From assembly GCA_963838215.1 (NCBI GenBank), contig CAWIQG010000007.1, positions 8,308 to 72,307 of the forward strand: a stretch of DNA of 64,000 nucleotides, given 5' to 3'. The notes below the pieces were generated by a model. That model worked only from the letters and a program-made list of their open reading frames with translations. It ran no database searches and was not told the DNA's origin. The stretch is from an uncultured Bacteroidales bacterium (lineage in GTDB: Bacteria; Bacteroidota; Bacteroidia; Bacteroidales; VadinHA17). This document shows positions 1 to 14,764 of the stretch, in pieces. Both the position numbers and the translations under genes were made by a program. Each line of letters starts with the position of its first letter. Position 1 is the stretch's first letter.

Positions 1-674
1 TGGTAAGAGATGTTGAACGTGGACTTGATGACAAAGATCGTTTGAACTGTTATGATGAACAGCTCTGGTTATACTACCGTGTACTTGGACAAAAACGAGA
101 TGACAATAACAAGATATACAGTTTTCATGCCCCTGAAGTAAAATGTATCTCAAAAGGCAAAGAACACAAGAGGTATGAATTTGGCAACAAAAGTAGCTTT
201 GCAATCACCAAGAAAAGTGGAATAGTAGTTGGGGCGATGGCATTTGAAGATAATATTTTCGATGGTCATACTCTTGAACCGCAACTGGCACAGGTTGAAG
301 ATCTTTTAGGTCGATTGCCTGAAGCTGCCTTGGTTGACAGAGGCTGTAAGGGGCGAAAAAGCATCATGGGGGTTAGCATTAAAATACCAGGCTCAGGAAA
401 AGGTAAAACCGCTTATCAAAAAGCCAAAGAGAGAGAGCGGTTCCGAAGAAGAGCATCAATAGAACCAATTATAGGACATTTAAAACAAGACCACCGGTTA
501 CTCAGAAATTACCTCAAAGGTGTTGAGGGTGATATGATTAACACTCTTTTGGCAGGTGCAGCGTTCAATATGATGAAGATGTTACGGAAAATCCGTAAGT
601 CTATTATCTGTGTCTTAAATGAATTTATCAAAAAATTGACTCAGGAATATAAGATCCTGGTGAATTATTGTTAA
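1..674 (+). mobile_element. IS5-family transposase, C-terminal part (5' end outside the window)
   Basis: Motifs KGKxHKxYEFGxK, DGHTL, VDRG and RRRASIEPIIGHLKQDHRLxRNYLKG..GDxIN...AAFN are typical of IS5-family DDE transposases; the frame is open from the window edge. Confidence 0.9.
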
Positions 675-682
675 AACAGACA

Positions 683-698
683 TTTTAAGGATCGACTA
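683..698 (+). mobile_element. Probable right terminal inverted repeat of the IS5 element
   Basis: TTTTAAGGATCGACTA just after the transposase stop resembles the ...TTYAGGRNCGACTA ends of this IS5 group; the left end is not in the window, so it cannot be paired. Confidence 0.5.
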
Positions 699-906
699 CT
701 TAATCTGACTGGCTAAATGGGGTCGTGCACATCGGCGTTTGCAGTAAATAACAAAGTATAGATGAAGGTCCTATATATAATAATAAAACAAAATATGAAC
801 TATTGCTTCCCAATTCCCCAAAATAATGTAAATTGAGGGTCAAATGTGAAATGTTGGCAATAGGCTTTATATCTGTATGTTATACAATATTATCGATTAT
901 GGCCTA

Positions 907-2159: not shown

Positions 2160-2269
2160 AGTTCAATCAAAAGACTAAATTTTCCCCTACAGGGTCTTAA
2201 ATACGAGATTCTGCATCATGACCATTATCATGAAAATAACCAAATACTCAAAGAGAAATAAGAACGCTC

Positions 2270-2396
2270 CGCTAACTCGATCAATGCCATGAAAAGCACT
2301 ACACTGAAACAGACAGCAACCAAACCAGATGGGGATCGCTAATTTTGGCTTAAATGAAAAATCCAGTATAGGTTATAAAGCAGACTCCCGTTAGCC
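2270..2396 (+). repeat. attC-like intergenic element 1
   Basis: Starts CGCTAAC and ends GTTAGCC (complementary cores); 2334-2395 matches 4358-4418 at 52/62; next ATG is 30 bp downstream. Confidence 0.6.
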
Positions 2397-2426
2397 TTAA
2401 ATAATAACAAATAACTCCTAGATCAC

Positions 2427-3326
2427 ATGAATATTAAAATCTTTTTATTAAGCCTGATTCTACTAAGCATGATGAATAAGTTTGACTTATTAAAAGCTCA
2501 GGGAGAGAGTATTGAACAGATAACAATATTTGGATCCAGGATTAAGAATCCTGTAGTGACAGATGTTAGAACTGAACAAAATAATATCTATTTTAATGTT
2601 AATAACAAATCTTTTTATCCATATATTTTTGAAGTAACATTTGGAGACTTCAGGAATTTAAGTCCCAGAGTATTCGATAAAAAAGTTACACTTTCACCAG
2701 GGATAAATAGATTATTTACTTTTAAAATACTTAATCCCAAAGAGGCTCCAGTTCTAAGCTATCAAACCAGATATTATCCGGCTAAAACAAATTCGAGTGA
2801 TCAAAAATTCAATTCATATTTGGTTCCTATCGGTAGGAATAGAACTGTTGAATTTCAAACTATCAATGATGGAAAATCAATCAAAATATTCATTGATCAA
2901 TTCGTAATGAATATTGGAGATACCGTTTTTAATTCGCGAAAAGGAATTGTGACAGCATTACCTGATAACAGCGGCGAAATTGACAGGATTATTTATAATA
3001 GTTTTGAAATCCGTCATGAAGATGGAACAATTGCAGTTTACCTGGGATTAAACTCGGACGTAAAAGTGCACAAATTGGGTCAGGTAGTCTTTCCTGGTCA
3101 GCCAATTGGTATAATAGGTGCTTCGAAACTATTGACTTTTCGAGTATATGAAATGCAGGATGAAGGGATGCTAAAGGCAATTAATATTTTATATTCAGGA
3201 CAAGATACTCATATGATTTTAGATCAAAACTTAAATGGAACAAAAGTTTTCTATTCGGCTGATATTATAAAAAAAGAGATGACTAGAAAGGAAATATCTA
3301 GATTCGATAAACATACTCTTTATTAA
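2427..3326 (+). CDS. Secreted protein with a degenerate M23 peptidase-like C-terminal domain
   Basis: N-terminal signal peptide; GDTVFNSRKGIV...IRHEDGTIAVY...GQVVFPGQPIG resembles the M23/LytM fold, but the HxH metal motif is missing. Confidence 0.7.
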   Translation: MNIKIFLLSLILLSMMNKFDLLKAQGESIEQITIFGSRIKNPVVTDVRTEQNNIYFNVNNKSFYPYIFEVTFGDFRNLSPRVFDKKVTLSPGINRLFTFKILNPKEAPVLSYQTRYYPAKTNSSDQKFNSYLVPIGRNRTVEFQTINDGKSIKIFIDQFVMNIGDTVFNSRKGIVTALPDNSGEIDRIIYNSFEIRHEDGTIAVYLGLNSDVKVHKLGQVVFPGQPIGIIGASKLLTFRVYEMQDEGMLKAINILYSGQDTHMILDQNLNGTKVFYSADIIKKEMTRKEISRFDKHTLY

Positions 3327-3342
3327 ACCTAAGGCTAAAAAC

Positions 3343-3360
3343 GAGTTATGGTTAATAAAG
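3343..3360 (+). repeat. Cassette-boundary core site (GTTATGG), inverted with 4066-4083
   Basis: GAGTTATGGTTAATAAAG matches the reverse complement of 4066-4083 (GAGTTATGGTTAGTAATG) at 16/18; it also pairs with ACTAACCATAAC at 3392-3403. Confidence 0.7.
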
Positions 3361-3521
3361 TAATTACCTGCATGTTAGAAGGCTTTTTTAAACTAACCAT
3401 AACAGATAAATCAAGGTCGTTTTACCGAGACAATGCCAGCCCATCTATCAGTATTCATCATCTGGACAAATTTCTTTCGACAAGACAACTATTGAAGGAT
3501 AGATGGTTTTCTTAAATTTCC

Positions 3522-3529
3522 TATCTTTG
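3522..3529 (+). promoter_or_regulatory. Bacteroidota -7 promoter element of the TA operon
   Basis: TATCTTTG fits TAnnTTTG, 18 bp before the antitoxin ATG at 3548. Confidence 0.6.
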
Positions 3530-3547
3530 CAATACATATTTGAAGCC

Positions 3548-3784
3548 ATGACAGCGATACAATTAAAGACTTTATTAATCCACAGGATATCGGAAATTAA
3601 CGATGTTTCTTTTCTCAGAGCATTAAAAACAATTCTTGACTCTAAGACTGAAACAGGAGTGATACAATTAACTCAAGAACAACTCGATGACATAATTGCC
3701 TCAAAGAAAGAAATAGAACAAGGATTATTCATCGAAAATAGTGCTTTAGAAAAAGAAGTTAAGCATTGGCTAAACGCAAGATAG
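3548..3784 (+). CDS. Putative type II antitoxin
   Basis: 78-aa ORF (MTAIQLK...LTQEQLDDIIASKKEIEQG) overlapping the downstream RelE/ParE gene; ATG 3548 preferred because it follows the -7 motif. Confidence 0.75.
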   Translation: MTAIQLKTLLIHRISEINDVSFLRALKTILDSKTETGVIQLTQEQLDDIIASKKEIEQGLFIENSALEKEVKHWLNAR

Positions 3785-4065
3785 TCTGGTCAAATAGAGC
3801 AAAGATTAGACTCTATGCCATACTTGATTTCTATATTGTAAGAAATAAAAGTAAGGTATATTCAATCAAACTTCAAAAACTAATTTCAAAAGAGGTCAAC
3901 CTTCTTATAAAACAACCTGATCTTGGATTAAAAACATCGGAGGAGACAACTCGGGGACTAATAATTGAGAATTACATTGTCTACTATGAGATTACTGATG
4001 ATAAAATCATTATTCATACAATCTGGGATAGCAGACAAAATCCTGACAACAAGATAATTAAATAA
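3766..4065 (+). CDS. Type II toxin, RelE/ParE family
   Basis: 99 aa, basic; KIVWSNRA..L..I..FY...PDLG.....TRGLIIENYIVYY......I.IHTIWDSRQNP is the ParE/RelE pattern. Confidence 0.9.
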   Translation: MAKRKIVWSNRAKIRLYAILDFYIVRNKSKVYSIKLQKLISKEVNLLIKQPDLGLKTSEETTRGLIIENYIVYYEITDDKIIIHTIWDSRQNPDNKIIK

Positions 4066-4074
4066 CATTACTAA

Positions 4075-4419
4075 CCATAACTCAGTCAGTATAGTTAATT
4101 GCCTTCGGCCAAAACCGGGACTCAACACAAAAGAGAGTTTTTTTAATTGGCCGGCCGACGCTCTAGCTGTCATGGTTTTTGCCGGCACCATCAAGACAAT
4201 TATATCATGACAAGACAACTCCTGCCCATTTATCTGGACTTTCCACTTTGACAACTTCATCTAGACGGGAAAACTTTCGTCCGTCAACCGGATTTTACAA
4301 AAACGCATACCAACCCTGACACAGACGACAACTGACCAAACCGCCAGAGCAAGAAGAGATCGCTAATTCTGGTTTAGATGAAATATCGATATAGGTTATC
4401 AGACAAACTCCCGTTAGCG
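4075..4419 (+). repeat. attC-like intergenic element 2 (longest copy, ~345 bp)
   Basis: Starts CCATAAC 10 bp after the toxin stop and ends GTTAGCG; 4172-4248 resembles 5829-5904 and 4358-4418 resembles 2334-2395. Confidence 0.6.
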
Positions 4420-4537
4420 TTCAGCATAAACTGCGCACAAAGAGGAATTTATAATGACAGTTTCACAATTTCTATAATAATCTGTTTCACAGCAATATTG
4501 ACAATAATCTTTCCTGGAACAGATTCAATTTGCAATC

Positions 4538-4562
4538 AAATGACGTGTAAATGACGTGTAAA
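4538..4562. promoter_or_regulatory. Tandem 11-bp direct repeat, candidate operator of the XRE gene
   Basis: AAATGACGTGT x2, upstream of the -7 motif TAATTTTG (4601-4608) and the ATG at 4630. Confidence 0.5.
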
Positions 4563-4629
4563 GTACATAATTATTACTTTAAGCATCAGTTTTTCAATTG
4601 TAATTTTGACAAAACTTAAATGCACTACC

Positions 4630-5493
4630 ATGAAACAACCAGAATTAGGGAAAAAGATTTCCGAATTAAGAAAGGATAAAGGACTTACCCAAGAGGAACT
4701 TGTTGACAAGTGTAATATAAGTGTCCGAACAATCCAAAGAATTGAGGCAGGTGAAGTTACTCCAAGGAGTTATACTGTTAAAACTATTCTTGCTGCCCTC
4801 GATTATGACCTAAGTAAAATATCAGATATGATTGATGATAATAATAAACGGAACTTCTTTGAATGGTTAAGAGATGTCCTACTTATTGATATTAACCCAG
4901 ATAAACCAGCAAATTATCTTATTAAACAAATTAACATAGCTTGGGTGTTCGGATTAATCTATTTAATTTTAATCATCCTTGGTGGAGCTGGAGCATATTA
5001 CAAAACAACACAGGATCAGATGATTTTCAGCATTCCCTTTAATATATATTTGAAAATCTCTGTCTTAATTGCATCCTTTTTCTTTCAACGTGGTTTCATC
5101 ATTGCCGGTCATTTCTTTAAGAACTACCTACTTAAGATTATGTCTTTCGTCCTAATTTTCGGAATGTTCCTACTTATCAGCTACGACATCACATCAATAT
5201 TTTATAAACCAACTGAACACTTATTTATCCTAAAAGCTTTAGCTCTAATTTTTGGAGTGATAGATATTCTTTTTGGTGTCTCTCTCATTAAGCTTCAAAA
5301 ATCACTTGGACCACTACCGATTATTGCAGGTATCTTCATTATAATCGCAGCTTGTTTTTTCTTAACATTTTCCTTGGCTTATGTAGGCCTTATCATTTTA
5401 ATTCCTTATGAGATATTAAAAATTGTGATCTTATATAAAGCAATAGAATTAATAAAAACAAAACAGATAGAAAACGAGACCATTACCACTTGA
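4630..5493 (+). CDS. XRE-family HTH regulator with a multi-pass membrane C-terminus
   Basis: MKQPELGKKISELRKDKGLTQEELVDKCNISVRTIQRIEAGEVTPR HTH followed by about 6 hydrophobic helices. Confidence 0.9.
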   Translation: MKQPELGKKISELRKDKGLTQEELVDKCNISVRTIQRIEAGEVTPRSYTVKTILAALDYDLSKISDMIDDNNKRNFFEWLRDVLLIDINPDKPANYLIKQINIAWVFGLIYLILIILGGAGAYYKTTQDQMIFSIPFNIYLKISVLIASFFFQRGFIIAGHFFKNYLLKIMSFVLIFGMFLLISYDITSIFYKPTEHLFILKALALIFGVIDILFGVSLIKLQKSLGPLPIIAGIFIIIAACFFLTFSLAYVGLIILIPYEILKIVILYKAIELIKTKQIENETITT

Positions 5494-5522
5494 CTCAGTC
5501 ACTGTTTAAGTAAAAAAAAATT

Positions 5523-5598
5523 GTCGAGTAGGTAAGGGGGAGTTTCACCCCCAAACCTCTCTCAGAACCGTACGTGAACCTCTCGATTCATACGGCTC
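5523..5598 (-). ncRNA. Group II intron 3' remnant (domains V and VI)
   Basis: Minus strand reads GAGCCGTATGAATCGAGAGGTTCACGTACGGTTC (34-nt domain V, AGC triad, GAGA loop) then TGAGAGAGGTTTGGGGGTGAAACTCCCCCTTACCTACTCGAC (domain VI, terminal AC). No RT ORF nearby. Confidence 0.92.
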
Positions 5599-5778
5599 TT
5601 CGAACTCATACAACCAGCTAAGGCTAAAAGGCACATGTTAAAAGCTCATCCCCCATTTTGGAGCTGGCCAAATTTAAATAGCCTTGAGTCCGCTGACCCC
5701 TTTGCCACTAAACACAACTTGTCCCGATTTATCGGGATGCTTTTTTGCCTTCCTGGACACTGCCATTTAAAAAATTTC

Positions 5779-5904
5779 ATCATGACACGGTAATTCCTAC
5801 TCACCTATCTGGACTAAAAAATAAATAAATGGCTTTTGCAATCCCGTCAAGACAAATTATTTATGACGAGACAACTCCTACTCATCTATCCGGACTTTAC
5901 ACTT
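5779..5904 (+). repeat. attC-like intergenic element 3 (internal segment with a partial tandem copy)
   Basis: 5829-5904 aligns to 4172-4248 (TCAAGACAA..ATGACRAGACAACTCCTRCYCATYTATCYGGACTTT); 5779-5815 is a second, degenerate copy. Confidence 0.75.
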
Positions 5905-6076
5905 CCCACATCATTCTCAGAGTAACATTTTGACTGCTTTTCATATTAAGCAAATATTATTACTAAAAAAATAGACCTATCAGTCCTGTCTTAACCTGAC
6001 TTGATTTATATCAGATTTTCATGAAAATAATGGTGCCATAGTCTGATAACGTCTTATTCTCATCAGCGCTTCTGCC

Positions 6077-6235
6077 TGTGACTGACGTGGCGAAAACATA
6101 TCTAAAGCAAAGGAAAAAGTAAAAAGGTGAAAGGCGAAAGTAACCATTTCAACAATTCAACTTCTTCAACATTTCAATATTTCAACTTTTTACTTTCACC
6201 TTTCTCCTTTCTCCTTTCAACCTGACTGACGTGGC
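6077..6235. repeat. 159-bp direct repeat, copy B
   Basis: Matches 907-1065 at offset 5170; TGACTGACGTGGC at 6079-6091 and 6223-6235. Confidence 0.95.
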
Positions 6236-6244
6236 AATGCTGTA

Positions 6245-6732
6245 GGATTTCGAATTGAGGAATCCGGATTGTGGATTGCGGATTGTGGAATTCGGATTGC
6301 GGATTTGTAACTGATAGCTTTAATCAAAAAAAAAGAGACAAGACTGATCTGCCAGTAAACAGGTTCGAACAGTTCTGGACTTAATTTTAATATTGTTCCT
6401 AAAAATTTTCACGAGTCGAAACATAAATTCCACATCAAAGATATTTCTAAGATTAATCCATGTCAATACCACTTAAGTGTTAGATAAATTTTCATCTAAG
6501 GATAATGCTGATTAGAAAATAGTTTCTTAATTTCATTCCACGATTGTGCTAACCTGTCAAAGGGACGACCGGAAACTAAAAATGAATCGCTGTTTTAAAC
6601 TAAACATTGCGGATTTGAGATTGCGGAATATCAACTTATTGCTAATTAAGAATAACAGGAGAAACTACAATAAAGAAACAATTTCACAAAAAAATCCAAA
6701 ATCTCCAATCCGAAATCCGCAATCCGAAATCT
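6245..6732. repeat. Heptamer arrays (GGATTGC-like) in inverted arrangement
   Basis: GGATTGY runs at 6245-6306 and 6606-6629; complementary AATCCGC/AATCCGA run at 6692-6732. Confidence 0.85.
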
Positions 6733-6772
6733 GGAAAATTGGAACACTATAGTGTAAACTGCTATCGGTTTC

Positions 6773-13912: not shown

Positions 13913-14155
13913 TTTTTGTCATTTGTTTGTGTTGTACAAAAATAACTTTAAATAACAATAATTGATTAAATGCAGTGAATTATAAATCAGGTAGCAAGGT
14001 GCGAGATCCATTCAACAAAACACCATTCTACATGCAGCATGCACCTTTCATCTGATCTTTGCCTTTTTAAATATTCTACTCACATAAAATAAATCATGAT
14101 GCTTATCAGTAAATATTTTTGATAACTTTGGCATAAGTTTATTTATGAGACCTTT

Positions 14156-14764
14156 ATGATAGAAAAAATCAGGGAAATATTTAATAATGAAGCATCTGCA
14201 ATTAAAAAAATTCCAATTACAAAAAGTTATGAAGATGCAATCGGAATAATTCACCGGCAGGTTCATGGTAAGAATGGTAAGCTGGTTACCAGTGGGATGG
14301 GAAAAGCGGGTCAGATAGCCCATAATATTGCAACCACTTTCAGTTCCACAGGAACTCCTTCGGTATTTCTTCATCCGAGTGAAGCCCAACACGGCGACCT
14401 GGGAATTCTTCAGGAAAATGATGTTCTGCTGGCAATTTCCAATTCGGGAAAAACCAGGGAGATCATTGAGTTAATTGATCTAAAAGACAACCTCTATCCA
14501 GGAATTCCTGTAATAGTTATAACTGGCAATGAGAATAGTCCACTGGCACAAAAAGCCGATTGTTTTATCTCGACTGGTGCTCCTGCTGAAGTCTGCCCTC
14601 TGGGACTTACTCCAACTACATCCACAACAGTTATGACGGTAATCGGAGATGCACTTGTCGCGCTTATGATGGGTAAAATCGGATTTAATGCAGGAGATTA
14701 CGCAAAAAGGCACCATGGTGGATACCTTGGTATAAAATCGAGGGAAATTTCCGGGAAAGATTAA
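14156..14764 (+). CDS. SIS-domain sugar-phosphate isomerase (KpsF/GutQ-like, no CBS domains)
   Basis: SGMGKAG.IA..IA.TFSSTGTPS.FLHPSEAQHGDLG, SNSGKT, EVCPLGLTPTTST, HHGG.LG. Confidence 0.9.
   Translation: MIEKIREIFNNEASAIKKIPITKSYEDAIGIIHRQVHGKNGKLVTSGMGKAGQIAHNIATTFSSTGTPSVFLHPSEAQHGDLGILQENDVLLAISNSGKTREIIELIDLKDNLYPGIPVIVITGNENSPLAQKADCFISTGAPAEVCPLGLTPTTSTTVMTVIGDALVALMMGKIGFNAGDYAKRHHGGYLGIKSREISGKD

Follow-up and report, generated by a model that had tools for sequence, protein, structure and literature searches.

Integrons are held to be the only bacterial machinery dedicated to capturing gene cassettes, with the integrase IntI and short attC hairpins as their defining parts. Canonical attC sites measure about 57-141 nt, and integrons have attC parasites of their own, namely the IS1111-attC elements and the group IIC-attC introns. 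In this study, we analysed a 64,000-nt stretch of DNA (the window; C7:8308-72307, that is, contig C7 of genome G000) from an uncultured Bacteroidales bacterium, whose genome is a metagenome-assembled genome (MAG) of seven contigs. The window segment 2262-5910 is very probably a satellite array, now decayed and without a recombinase, of a system by which an environmental genus of the Bacteroidales captures gene cassettes. Judged by its sequence, the intact system appears to be integron-like without IntI, with a Xer-like recombinase that is encoded elsewhere in the genome. Its layout comprised the recombinase, a unique attI-like site (...CGA|GTTAG) and then co-oriented cassettes, and its sites fall outside the attC size range.

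[quoted passage not shown] According to the text of Ross et al. (bioRxiv 10.1101/471110), these clusters consist of a XerD-like recombinase followed by co-directional low-GC genes with integron-like intergenic repeats. The criteria worded there call for a recombinase at the 5' end with 44% identity or more to B. fragilis BF9343_RS08045 and at least two co-directional downstream genes with a G+C content (GC) of 41% or less, and the cargo consists of orphan immunity genes. How such clusters grow was called unknown in the available text of a 2025 article (PMC12247911). Compared by text description, the present system shares with rAID-1 the recombinase-headed clusters, the repetitive intergenic sequences and a Bacteroidales host. 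The main array, on contig C4, is almost entirely co-directional and has a GC of 35.5% (40.6% in the recombinase gene), and the window array has no adjacent recombinase. Since the GC of the whole genome is only 38.2%, the rAID-1 threshold is weak here. However, the scanned cargo of the present system is made up of phage-defence, restriction-modification and toxin-antitoxin (TA) genes rather than orphan immunity genes, and the host lineage is environmental, of the peat or soil type. Sites of about 290-350 nt with a fold, a crossover core and an attI-like partner are absent from the rAID-1 description as far as its text goes. No paper describing this site architecture was found in a literature search that included the available text of PMC8138268 and PMC8618304, the rAID-1 motif figures being outside the search. 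The system is probably a variant of the rAID-1 kind, and its mechanism is deduced from its anatomy.

The recombination sites and the cassette-end rule

The repeat that lies between the cassettes, termed the 'A' element, was searched for in G000 using nhmmer and BLAST, and nhmmer returned 35 matches. Most of them lay on the plus strand of C4:1081624-1140005, and C4 ends within a copy. Further matches were located at C1:71563-73975 (minus strand) and near C4:41k, 743-744k, 867k and 927-931k. Pairing the ends with hidden Markov models (HMMs) yielded 35 complete sites from G000 and five relatives. In the alignments, the left end of a site reads nnnnnnTAAC-N-CGG-N with a stem arm after it; at the right end, a stem arm precedes CCG-GGCC-GTTA-nnnnnn. 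Each cassette begins with TTAnnnnnn, contains one or more genes and closes with nnnnnnTAAC, after which comes a site of 258-466 nt ending in CCG-GGCC-G. An intact site lies, for example, at C4:1106505-1106857. The lengths of the complete sites clustered near 290 and 350 nt, and the length classes differed by whole internal units of 55-60 nt (alignment A1), which were present once, twice or more often per site. The copies of repeat family D2 in the window correspond to this unit. No target duplications flanked the site copies. The internal repeat was also considered as a short coding open reading frame (ORF; M-T-R-Q-L-L...), which was rejected because the frame was lost in other copies.

Within a site, the left and right ends form a stem of about 17 bp, and the interior contains a side hairpin, a third stem and the 55-60-nt unit. 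RNAalifold analysis of 36 sequences gave 17 terminal pairs, 13 of which showed compensatory change. A manual structure of 42 pairs comprised the terminal R box, a CGG/CCG helix, two stem segments, the side hairpin and the third stem. In this structure, 91.6% of the cells were paired compared to 82.5% in shuffles, and none of 500 shuffles reached the observed value; slid controls were 30-57% paired. Twenty-two pairs had changed on both sides (13.9 in shuffles), as had 125 cells (37.8 in shuffles; 0/500 reached this number). One-sided changes to G-U were nearly absent, which fits DNA pairing rather than RNA. Rfam, searched at gathering and E-value thresholds, returned only a group II intron, along with chance microRNA (miRNA) matches on the D1 hairpin.

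The ends of adjacent sites were then compared. In site n, the six variable bases that precede TAAC are the complement of the six that come after GTTA in site n-1, and this rule was examined on 28 adjacent site pairs from six genomes, with controls in which the partners were shuffled 20,000 times. All six positions matched in 12 pairs, and at least five matched in 16. The summed matches reached 116, compared to 55.6 ± 6.9 in the shuffled controls (maximum 87), and none of the 20,000 shuffles attained 116. When the same comparison was made inside single sites, 0/35 matched at all six positions. This complementarity between adjacent sites indicates that cassettes are discrete units cut at GTTA, as in integrons. 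The rule is the core/inverse-core relation of integrons, with the crossover predicted in or at GTTA. The 35 matches in the genome and the rule over 28 pairs confirmed that the repeats of the window are beyond chance.

The recombinase, its attI-like site and their relatives

The main array is headed by a gene for a recombinase of 501 aa (C4:1076848-1078353), which is co-oriented with the cassettes. Its C-terminal 275 aa matched NF040815 (XerA-type) at 220.4 bits against a cut-off of 220. Against TIGR02249, the protein scored 190.8 bits, below the cut-off of 265, and aligned in two stretches (protein 227-405 to model 2-180, with model 244-314 matched separately). The skipped model positions, 181-243, are those that we take to be the IntI-specific insert. 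None of the 11 genome matches to TIGR02249 exceeded the cut-off, and the array recombinase was the best of them. The nearest solved structures were XerA (4a8e and 5hxy), and IntI4 (2a3v) came third, again in two stretches. In the predicted structure, two similar beta-beta-alpha-beta-beta-alpha-beta modules, spanning residues 4-71 and 127-196, are joined by a disordered linker; the predicted local distance difference test (pLDDT) score was about 80-90 in the modules, and the models averaged 69 and 72.5 overall. The modules had no Pfam match and no fold match in the PDB at E ≤ 0.001 (Foldseek). LAGLIDADG enzymes and the XPB damage-recognition domain appeared as weak top Foldseek rows and were rejected as unconvincing relatives. 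We infer that the N-terminal modules may bind the internal repeats of the sites. Separate 300-aa XerC/D-like genes are also present in the genome.

According to the end rule, the start of the first cassette can be predicted from the first site. An exact match of 9-10 nt to this prediction was found behind the recombinase gene in four of five arrays (not in G018), and the predicted starts followed a conserved sequence ending in ...CGA|GTTAG. An HMM of this attI-like sequence had a single match in the whole G000 genome, and the site, at C4:1078529-1078666, lies behind the 3' end of the recombinase gene. The match adjoined the recombinase in G000, L030, G007, G014, G010, G016 and G018, and it was weak in G013. 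In the window, the best match of the same HMM (3328-3356, E 1.5) was at chance level.

Full-length homologues of the recombinase (51-80% identity) were detected in 7 of the 40 relatives searched, and the named records in this group are uncultured environmental Bacteroidales. Sites were located 3' of the recombinase on the same strand in five of the seven loci, namely G018 (11 in 8 kb), L030 (7), G014 (4), G007 (3) and G010. Of 41 genomes, 12 contained site DNA, and these all belong to a single genus; it occurred in 11 of 24 same-genus genomes, whereas the 16 genomes from other families had none. The right-end signature was also compared with its control in 201 genomes of the order, and it exceeded the control only in the two that are members of the genus. 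The 11 sites of G018 (L021 9454-17449) are spread over 8 kb, and seven of the gaps between them measure only 183-406 nt. These gaps are too small for ordinary genes and may be empty or micro-cassettes.

We compared the cargo of eight array stretches, and no coding cassette was common to them. The tblastx matches were from site to site only, indicating that cargo differs completely between relatives. The XRE cassette of the window (see below) was found in G007 at 94% identity, covering exactly window 4413-5527 (query 3340-4454), and in G001 at 79% identity. The G007 cassette starts with GTTAGCGTTCAGC, as in the window, and the match begins at the predicted crossover, 4413. In both relatives the cassette is followed by ...AACGCTAAC-A-CGG, which is the predicted left box, and in G001 a complete site of about 320 nt ending in CCGGGCCGTTAT comes next. 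We count this recurrence, as read from the sequences, in favour of cassette mobility.

The main array extends over at least 61 kb of defence genes on C4, and nearly all of its ORFs are on the plus strand. Its cargo includes a STAND NTPase with a phosphoesterase domain, DUF1883-TIR, HsdM, HsdS and SIR2-like proteins, two D12 methylases, two DndB-type proteins and an AAA_5 protein with McrBC. Some units are multi-gene blocks, with 16-23 kb between detected sites. The Pfam scan covered 19 cassette ORFs with most small ORFs left out, namely 14 from C4 (18 were scanned, 4 without a match) and five from the window, and no immunity family was found among the 19.

To place the sites in the environment, a 5-kb test stretch was compared with public metagenome runs, none of which matched more than 16% of the words of the test sequence. 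In all four runs from peat, soil and permafrost, 2,168-2,797 contigs lay over the three sites of the test stretch, and the cassette interiors were almost bare. Look-alike sites are therefore plentiful in peat, soil and permafrost, a result that says nothing of excision.

The proposed mechanism and its alternatives

The system resembles integrons in having a recombinase, a primary site and a cassette array. Its sites are imperfect palindromes with conserved outer boxes and pairing ends, the start of a cassette is complementary to the cassette's own inverse core, and the crossover is placed in a GTT-containing core. Further likenesses are the lineage-specific sites, the TA and defence cassettes, and the satellite arrays without a recombinase. 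Unlike an integron integrase, however, the recombinase has no IntI-specific insert and two additional modules at its N-terminus, its nearest relative is archaeal XerA, and it is co-oriented with the array. The sites are two to three times longer than those of integrons and contain internal direct repeats and a side hairpin, and some cassettes are multi-gene blocks. In the probable mechanism, the recombinase would make its cuts inside GTTA, both in the attI-like site and in those of the array, as IntI does at attI and attC. Cassettes would be excised as circles and then inserted, and the substrate would probably be a folded single strand or a cruciform.

Several observations weigh against this interpretation. 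The involvement of a single strand is purely inferential. In 12 of the 28 adjacent pairs, four or fewer of the six end positions matched, some of these pairs spanning the 16-23-kb blocks. An intact site folded at -42.7 kcal/mol on the top strand (z -1.76) and at -49 kcal/mol on the bottom strand (z -2.10), so that the thermodynamic folding signal of the intact site alone is modest. No sites were found downstream of the recombinase in G016 (5.2 kb examined) or G008 (18 kb), and G004 and G023, with 11 and 8 sites, had no full-length recombinase match. The window array and the recombinase lie on different contigs of a MAG, with C4 broken inside a site. Finally, no recombination products were seen in the four metagenome runs, in which only repeat pile-ups and repeat-to-repeat joints appeared.

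We considered whether the window could be a canonical integron remnant (CALIN), in which a true IntI had acted on ordinary attC sites. The motif TAAC...GTTA overlaps the integron consensus RYYYAAC/GTTRRRY, left boxes such as ACCTAAC and GCCTAAC fit it, and the cassette-end rule is the same as in integrons. Integrons are also listed as detected in Bacteroidota in the available text of a review (PMC8618304). However, no protein of the genome reached the TIGR02249 cut-off, the recombinase gene points the same way as the array, and the attI-like site stands behind the 3' end of this gene. The sites are also far longer than attC sites, which mostly remain below about 150 nt, and we regard a CALIN as hardly credible. 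It is very improbable, too, that the repeats are transcribed structured RNAs (3' untranslated regions, terminators or small RNAs) or a family of miniature inverted-repeat transposable elements, with the array-like arrangement being incidental. Conserved and covarying stems, the many copies in one orientation and the great abundance of look-alikes in soil and peat metagenome contigs speak for such an explanation. Nevertheless, the fold of an RNA cannot explain why the flanks of adjacent sites 200-2,600 nt apart are complementary, nor why a matching start is found at a unique site behind the recombinase. G-U pairs were almost absent, the sites belong to no Rfam family, and their copies are without target duplications, whereas the one clear transposon, an insertion sequence (IS), has its own inverted repeats and a duplication.

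An unlikely explanation is also that the arrays grew by homologous recombination or by tandem integration of islands, the recombinase being a chromosome-dimer or island integrase without a role at the sites. The large multi-gene blocks of 16-23 kb between detected sites, the genomes with sites and without a recombinase match, and the hybrids of A-type and IS-derived sequence, which show that homologous or illegitimate events happen, are consistent with this explanation. However, under homologous exchange, a cassette-specific 6-nt extension would not stay paired across every cassette. The genome has separate 300-aa genes of the XerC/D type, and the two-module recombinase adjoins the attI-like sequence in seven or eight genomes.

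A cassette capture system of the Bacteroidales, as preferred here, is given a concrete anatomy by this genome and its relatives, including a crossover core, an attI-like partner, a covarying fold, copy variation of the internal unit and a cassette-end rule. In environmental Bacteroidales, defence genes of the restriction, TIR, STAND and McrBC types are kept on this platform. The growth of such arrays, a long-open question, becomes directly testable, and a further implication is that surveys of cassettes that rely on attC models may undercount a whole phylum. A broader proposal, toward which we lean slightly less than away from it, is that a second, parallel integron exists in Bacteroidota. It would use a Xer-like recombinase without the IntI insert, whose N-terminal modules read the 55-60-nt repeats like arm-type sites in giant folded sites (290-470 nt). 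Exchange of defence cassettes of one or several genes would take place at GTTA, between these sites and a unique attI-like site. Communities of peat, soil and permafrost would be rich in the system, which all current integron finders would miss.

The original prediction had described positions 2262-5910 as a decaying, integron-like cassette array with very long attC-like sites and no integrase in view, possibly specific to the Bacteroidales. The cassette array is supported by the end rule (0/20,000 shuffles), and intact sites are indeed very long, mostly about 290 or 350 nt within a range of 258-466 nt. Decay without a recombinase was borne out, as no intact site end was found anywhere in the 64-kb window, and so was lineage specificity, given the 11/24 genomes of the same genus and 0/16 of other families. 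Its cassette logic stood, while the strict integron did not, the recombinase being Xer-like without the IntI insert. The expected placement of spacers at ORF boundaries was observed, with sites lying between co-oriented genes, and so was gene content that varies among relatives (eight array stretches). The recombinase anticipated to accompany the repeat was found at the head of arrays, although it is Xer-like and not IntI.

The damaged array of the window and neighbouring elements

The homologous spacers between four unrelated units and the boundary motifs that had been predicted were all present in the sequence and were recovered by repeat search and BLAST. The four units were likewise recognised by Pfam (Pirin, ParE and HTH_3, with M23 weak), and all are on the plus strand. 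Cassette 1 (1332-2159) contains a pirin gene (Pirin 1.4e-37, Pirin_C 2.4e-26), and its expected 5' start, GTTAGCGGAG, was not found in the first 8 kb of the window. Cassette 2 (2390-3339) contains the M23-like gene (ORF 2427-3326), whose Peptidase_M23 match of 24.4 bits is under the cut-off of 28.7. It starts with GTTAGCCTTA (2390-2399) and ends with TAAGGCTAAA (3330-3339). Cassette 3 (3345-4071) holds a TA pair, with an antitoxin candidate at 3548-3784 that has no Pfam match and a ParE-family toxin at 3766-4065 (ParE_toxin 2.9e-9). It starts with GTTATGGTTA (3345-3354), which is complementary to TAACCATAAC at 4072-4081, and the repeat search delimited 23-nt arms at 3343-3365 and 4061-4083 that are 87% complementary (I14). 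With 10/10 complementary positions in the TA cassette and 9/10 in the M23-like cassette, the ends of both obey the cassette-end rule. A second TAACCATAAC occurs at 3394-3403, and next to it, in 3426-3490, are fragments of the internal unit of the site (3426-3449 and 3456-3490, repeat families D6 and D5). At 3522-3529 in the same cassette lies TATCTTTG, presumably a candidate promoter by the -7 box of Bacteroidetes. Cassette 4 (4413-5522) starts with GTTAGCGTTC and encodes an XRE-HTH membrane protein (ORF 4630-5493; HTH_3 1.9e-11).

No site of the window is undamaged: an IS remnant, a fragment of a group II intron or near-total deletion has affected each of them. Site 1 (2262-2396, plus strand) is a short 'B-type' derivative with left box CGCTAAC at 2270-2276 and right box CCCGTTA ending at 2393. 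Its TAAC-N-CGG...CCGTTA ends are common to copies at C4:40167, C4:37193, C6:260690 and C6:226348, and its right arm (2334-2389) shows homology to the right terminus of the IS described below, which targets the sites. This element, which had been counted among the attC-like spacers, folded no better than shuffles (z +1.56 and +1.72). The hairpin at 3343-3404 and the B-type element were accordingly rejected as folded sites (z -0.8 to +1.7). The sequence GAACGCTCCGCTAAC (2262-2276), at the left box of site 1, is the complement of the XRE cassette start GTTAGCGTTC (4413-4423), minus a 5-nt duplication, which hints at an older cassette order. Site 2 is vestigial; where cassette 2 ends in its left box and cassette 3 begins, no more than AACGA (3340-3344, plus strand) separates the two.

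Site 3 (4072-4416, plus strand) consists of an A-type left arm and centre from 4072 to about 4345 (nhmmer C7:12380-12654, equal to window 4073-4347, 224 bits), followed by an IS right-end remnant at 4358-4412, assigned by IS homology, and the crossover core GTTA at 4413-4416. The prediction of a full recombination site of about 345 bp at 4075-4419 thus failed, since the right end of an A-type site has been swapped for the IS remnant. The terminal stem is lost, and the bottom strand folded at -34.2 kcal/mol with a z of +0.14. Two repeats are shared with site 1, namely 2334-2363 with 4358-4387 (87% identical, D9) and 2367-2398 with 4390-4421 (84%, D8). In place of the expected left box of the site of cassette 4, there is an antisense fragment of group II intron domains V-VI (5523-5600, minus strand; RF00029, 61.5 bits, gathering score 40); at the equivalent place G007 has CCGAAACGCTAAC. 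Two copies of the internal unit of about 55-60 nt follow at 5763-5904 on the plus strand (D2; nhmmer C7:14065-14123 and 14136-14205). Window 4188-4248 is 80% identical to 5844-5904 and 67% identical to 5763-5823, and BLAST aligned 4172-4248 with 5829-5904 at 80.8% over 78 nt. These units are presumably the leftovers of site 4, the right end of which is absent. Since every site is damaged, the four cassettes (pirin, M23-like, ParE-type TA pair and XRE-membrane) are probably now immobile. The window array itself is a worn-out side array, which limits its own value. A recombinase fragment at C7:5925-6080, 2.2 kb before the window, was rejected as the remnant of a local platform, as its identity to the array recombinase was 41% over 44 residues, no nearer than to the other recombinases of the genome.

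The site-targeting IS is 1.72 kb long, with 17-bp inverted repeats (15/17 matching), a (G)CCGT duplication and a DDE transposase (DUF772, DDE_Tnp_1_6). Two copies, 99.6% identical, are located at C4:1128327-1130046 and 1131653-1133371 (L035 12327-14046 and 15653-17371), and each was inserted into the right core of a different site at the identical point, CCGT^, which suggests that the IS parasitises the recombination site in a site-specific manner. Sites in the window, on C1 and in G001 have group II introns within or next to them, which, together with the IS at one fixed point of two sites, resembles the attC parasites of integrons. However, the IS encodes a DDE transposase and is not of the IS110/IS1111 type. 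A full group II intron with a reverse transcriptase (RT)-maturase of 419 aa lies antisense in the C1 array, and behind this gene, at C1:75937-76014, is a 95% copy of the window fragment. In contrast to group IIC-attC introns, the C1 intron comes after a terminator-like hairpin and not after the site itself. In G001 (L044 317-1905), a sense group II intron with a 488-aa RT lies within about 15 nt of the XRE cassette start and takes the place of its GTTAGCG core. The 3' ends of introns are at contig edges in many relatives.

Joining the end of C4 to another contig was attempted and rejected, as this end resembles other sites only as family members and has no unique continuation. Other contig ends are internal sequence elsewhere at 100% identity (C2 start = C5:9647-9946, C3 start = C2:37218-37517, C6 end = C7:68119-68418), indicating that the assembly is not fully resolved. 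The C3 end is a long short-period tandem repeat. Window 1-705 contains the 3' part of a different IS (DDE_Tnp_1, weak match), which has five genome copies at 99.9%, one of them beside a solitary site at C4:744k. The whole window array is bracketed by direct copies (907-1073 and 6077-6243, 92% identical) of a 167-nt long-hairpin repeat. About six copies of it exist in the genome, four of which are near other satellite arrays (C4:39015, C4:45621, C4:937716 and C6:287872), and it yields spurious miRNA-family matches in Rfam. Tandem 14-nt repeats of the ATTGCGGATT type were found at window 6242-6320 and 6692-6735, the latter being an inverted copy about 390 nt away, and the pair resembles the two ends of a small inverted-repeat element.

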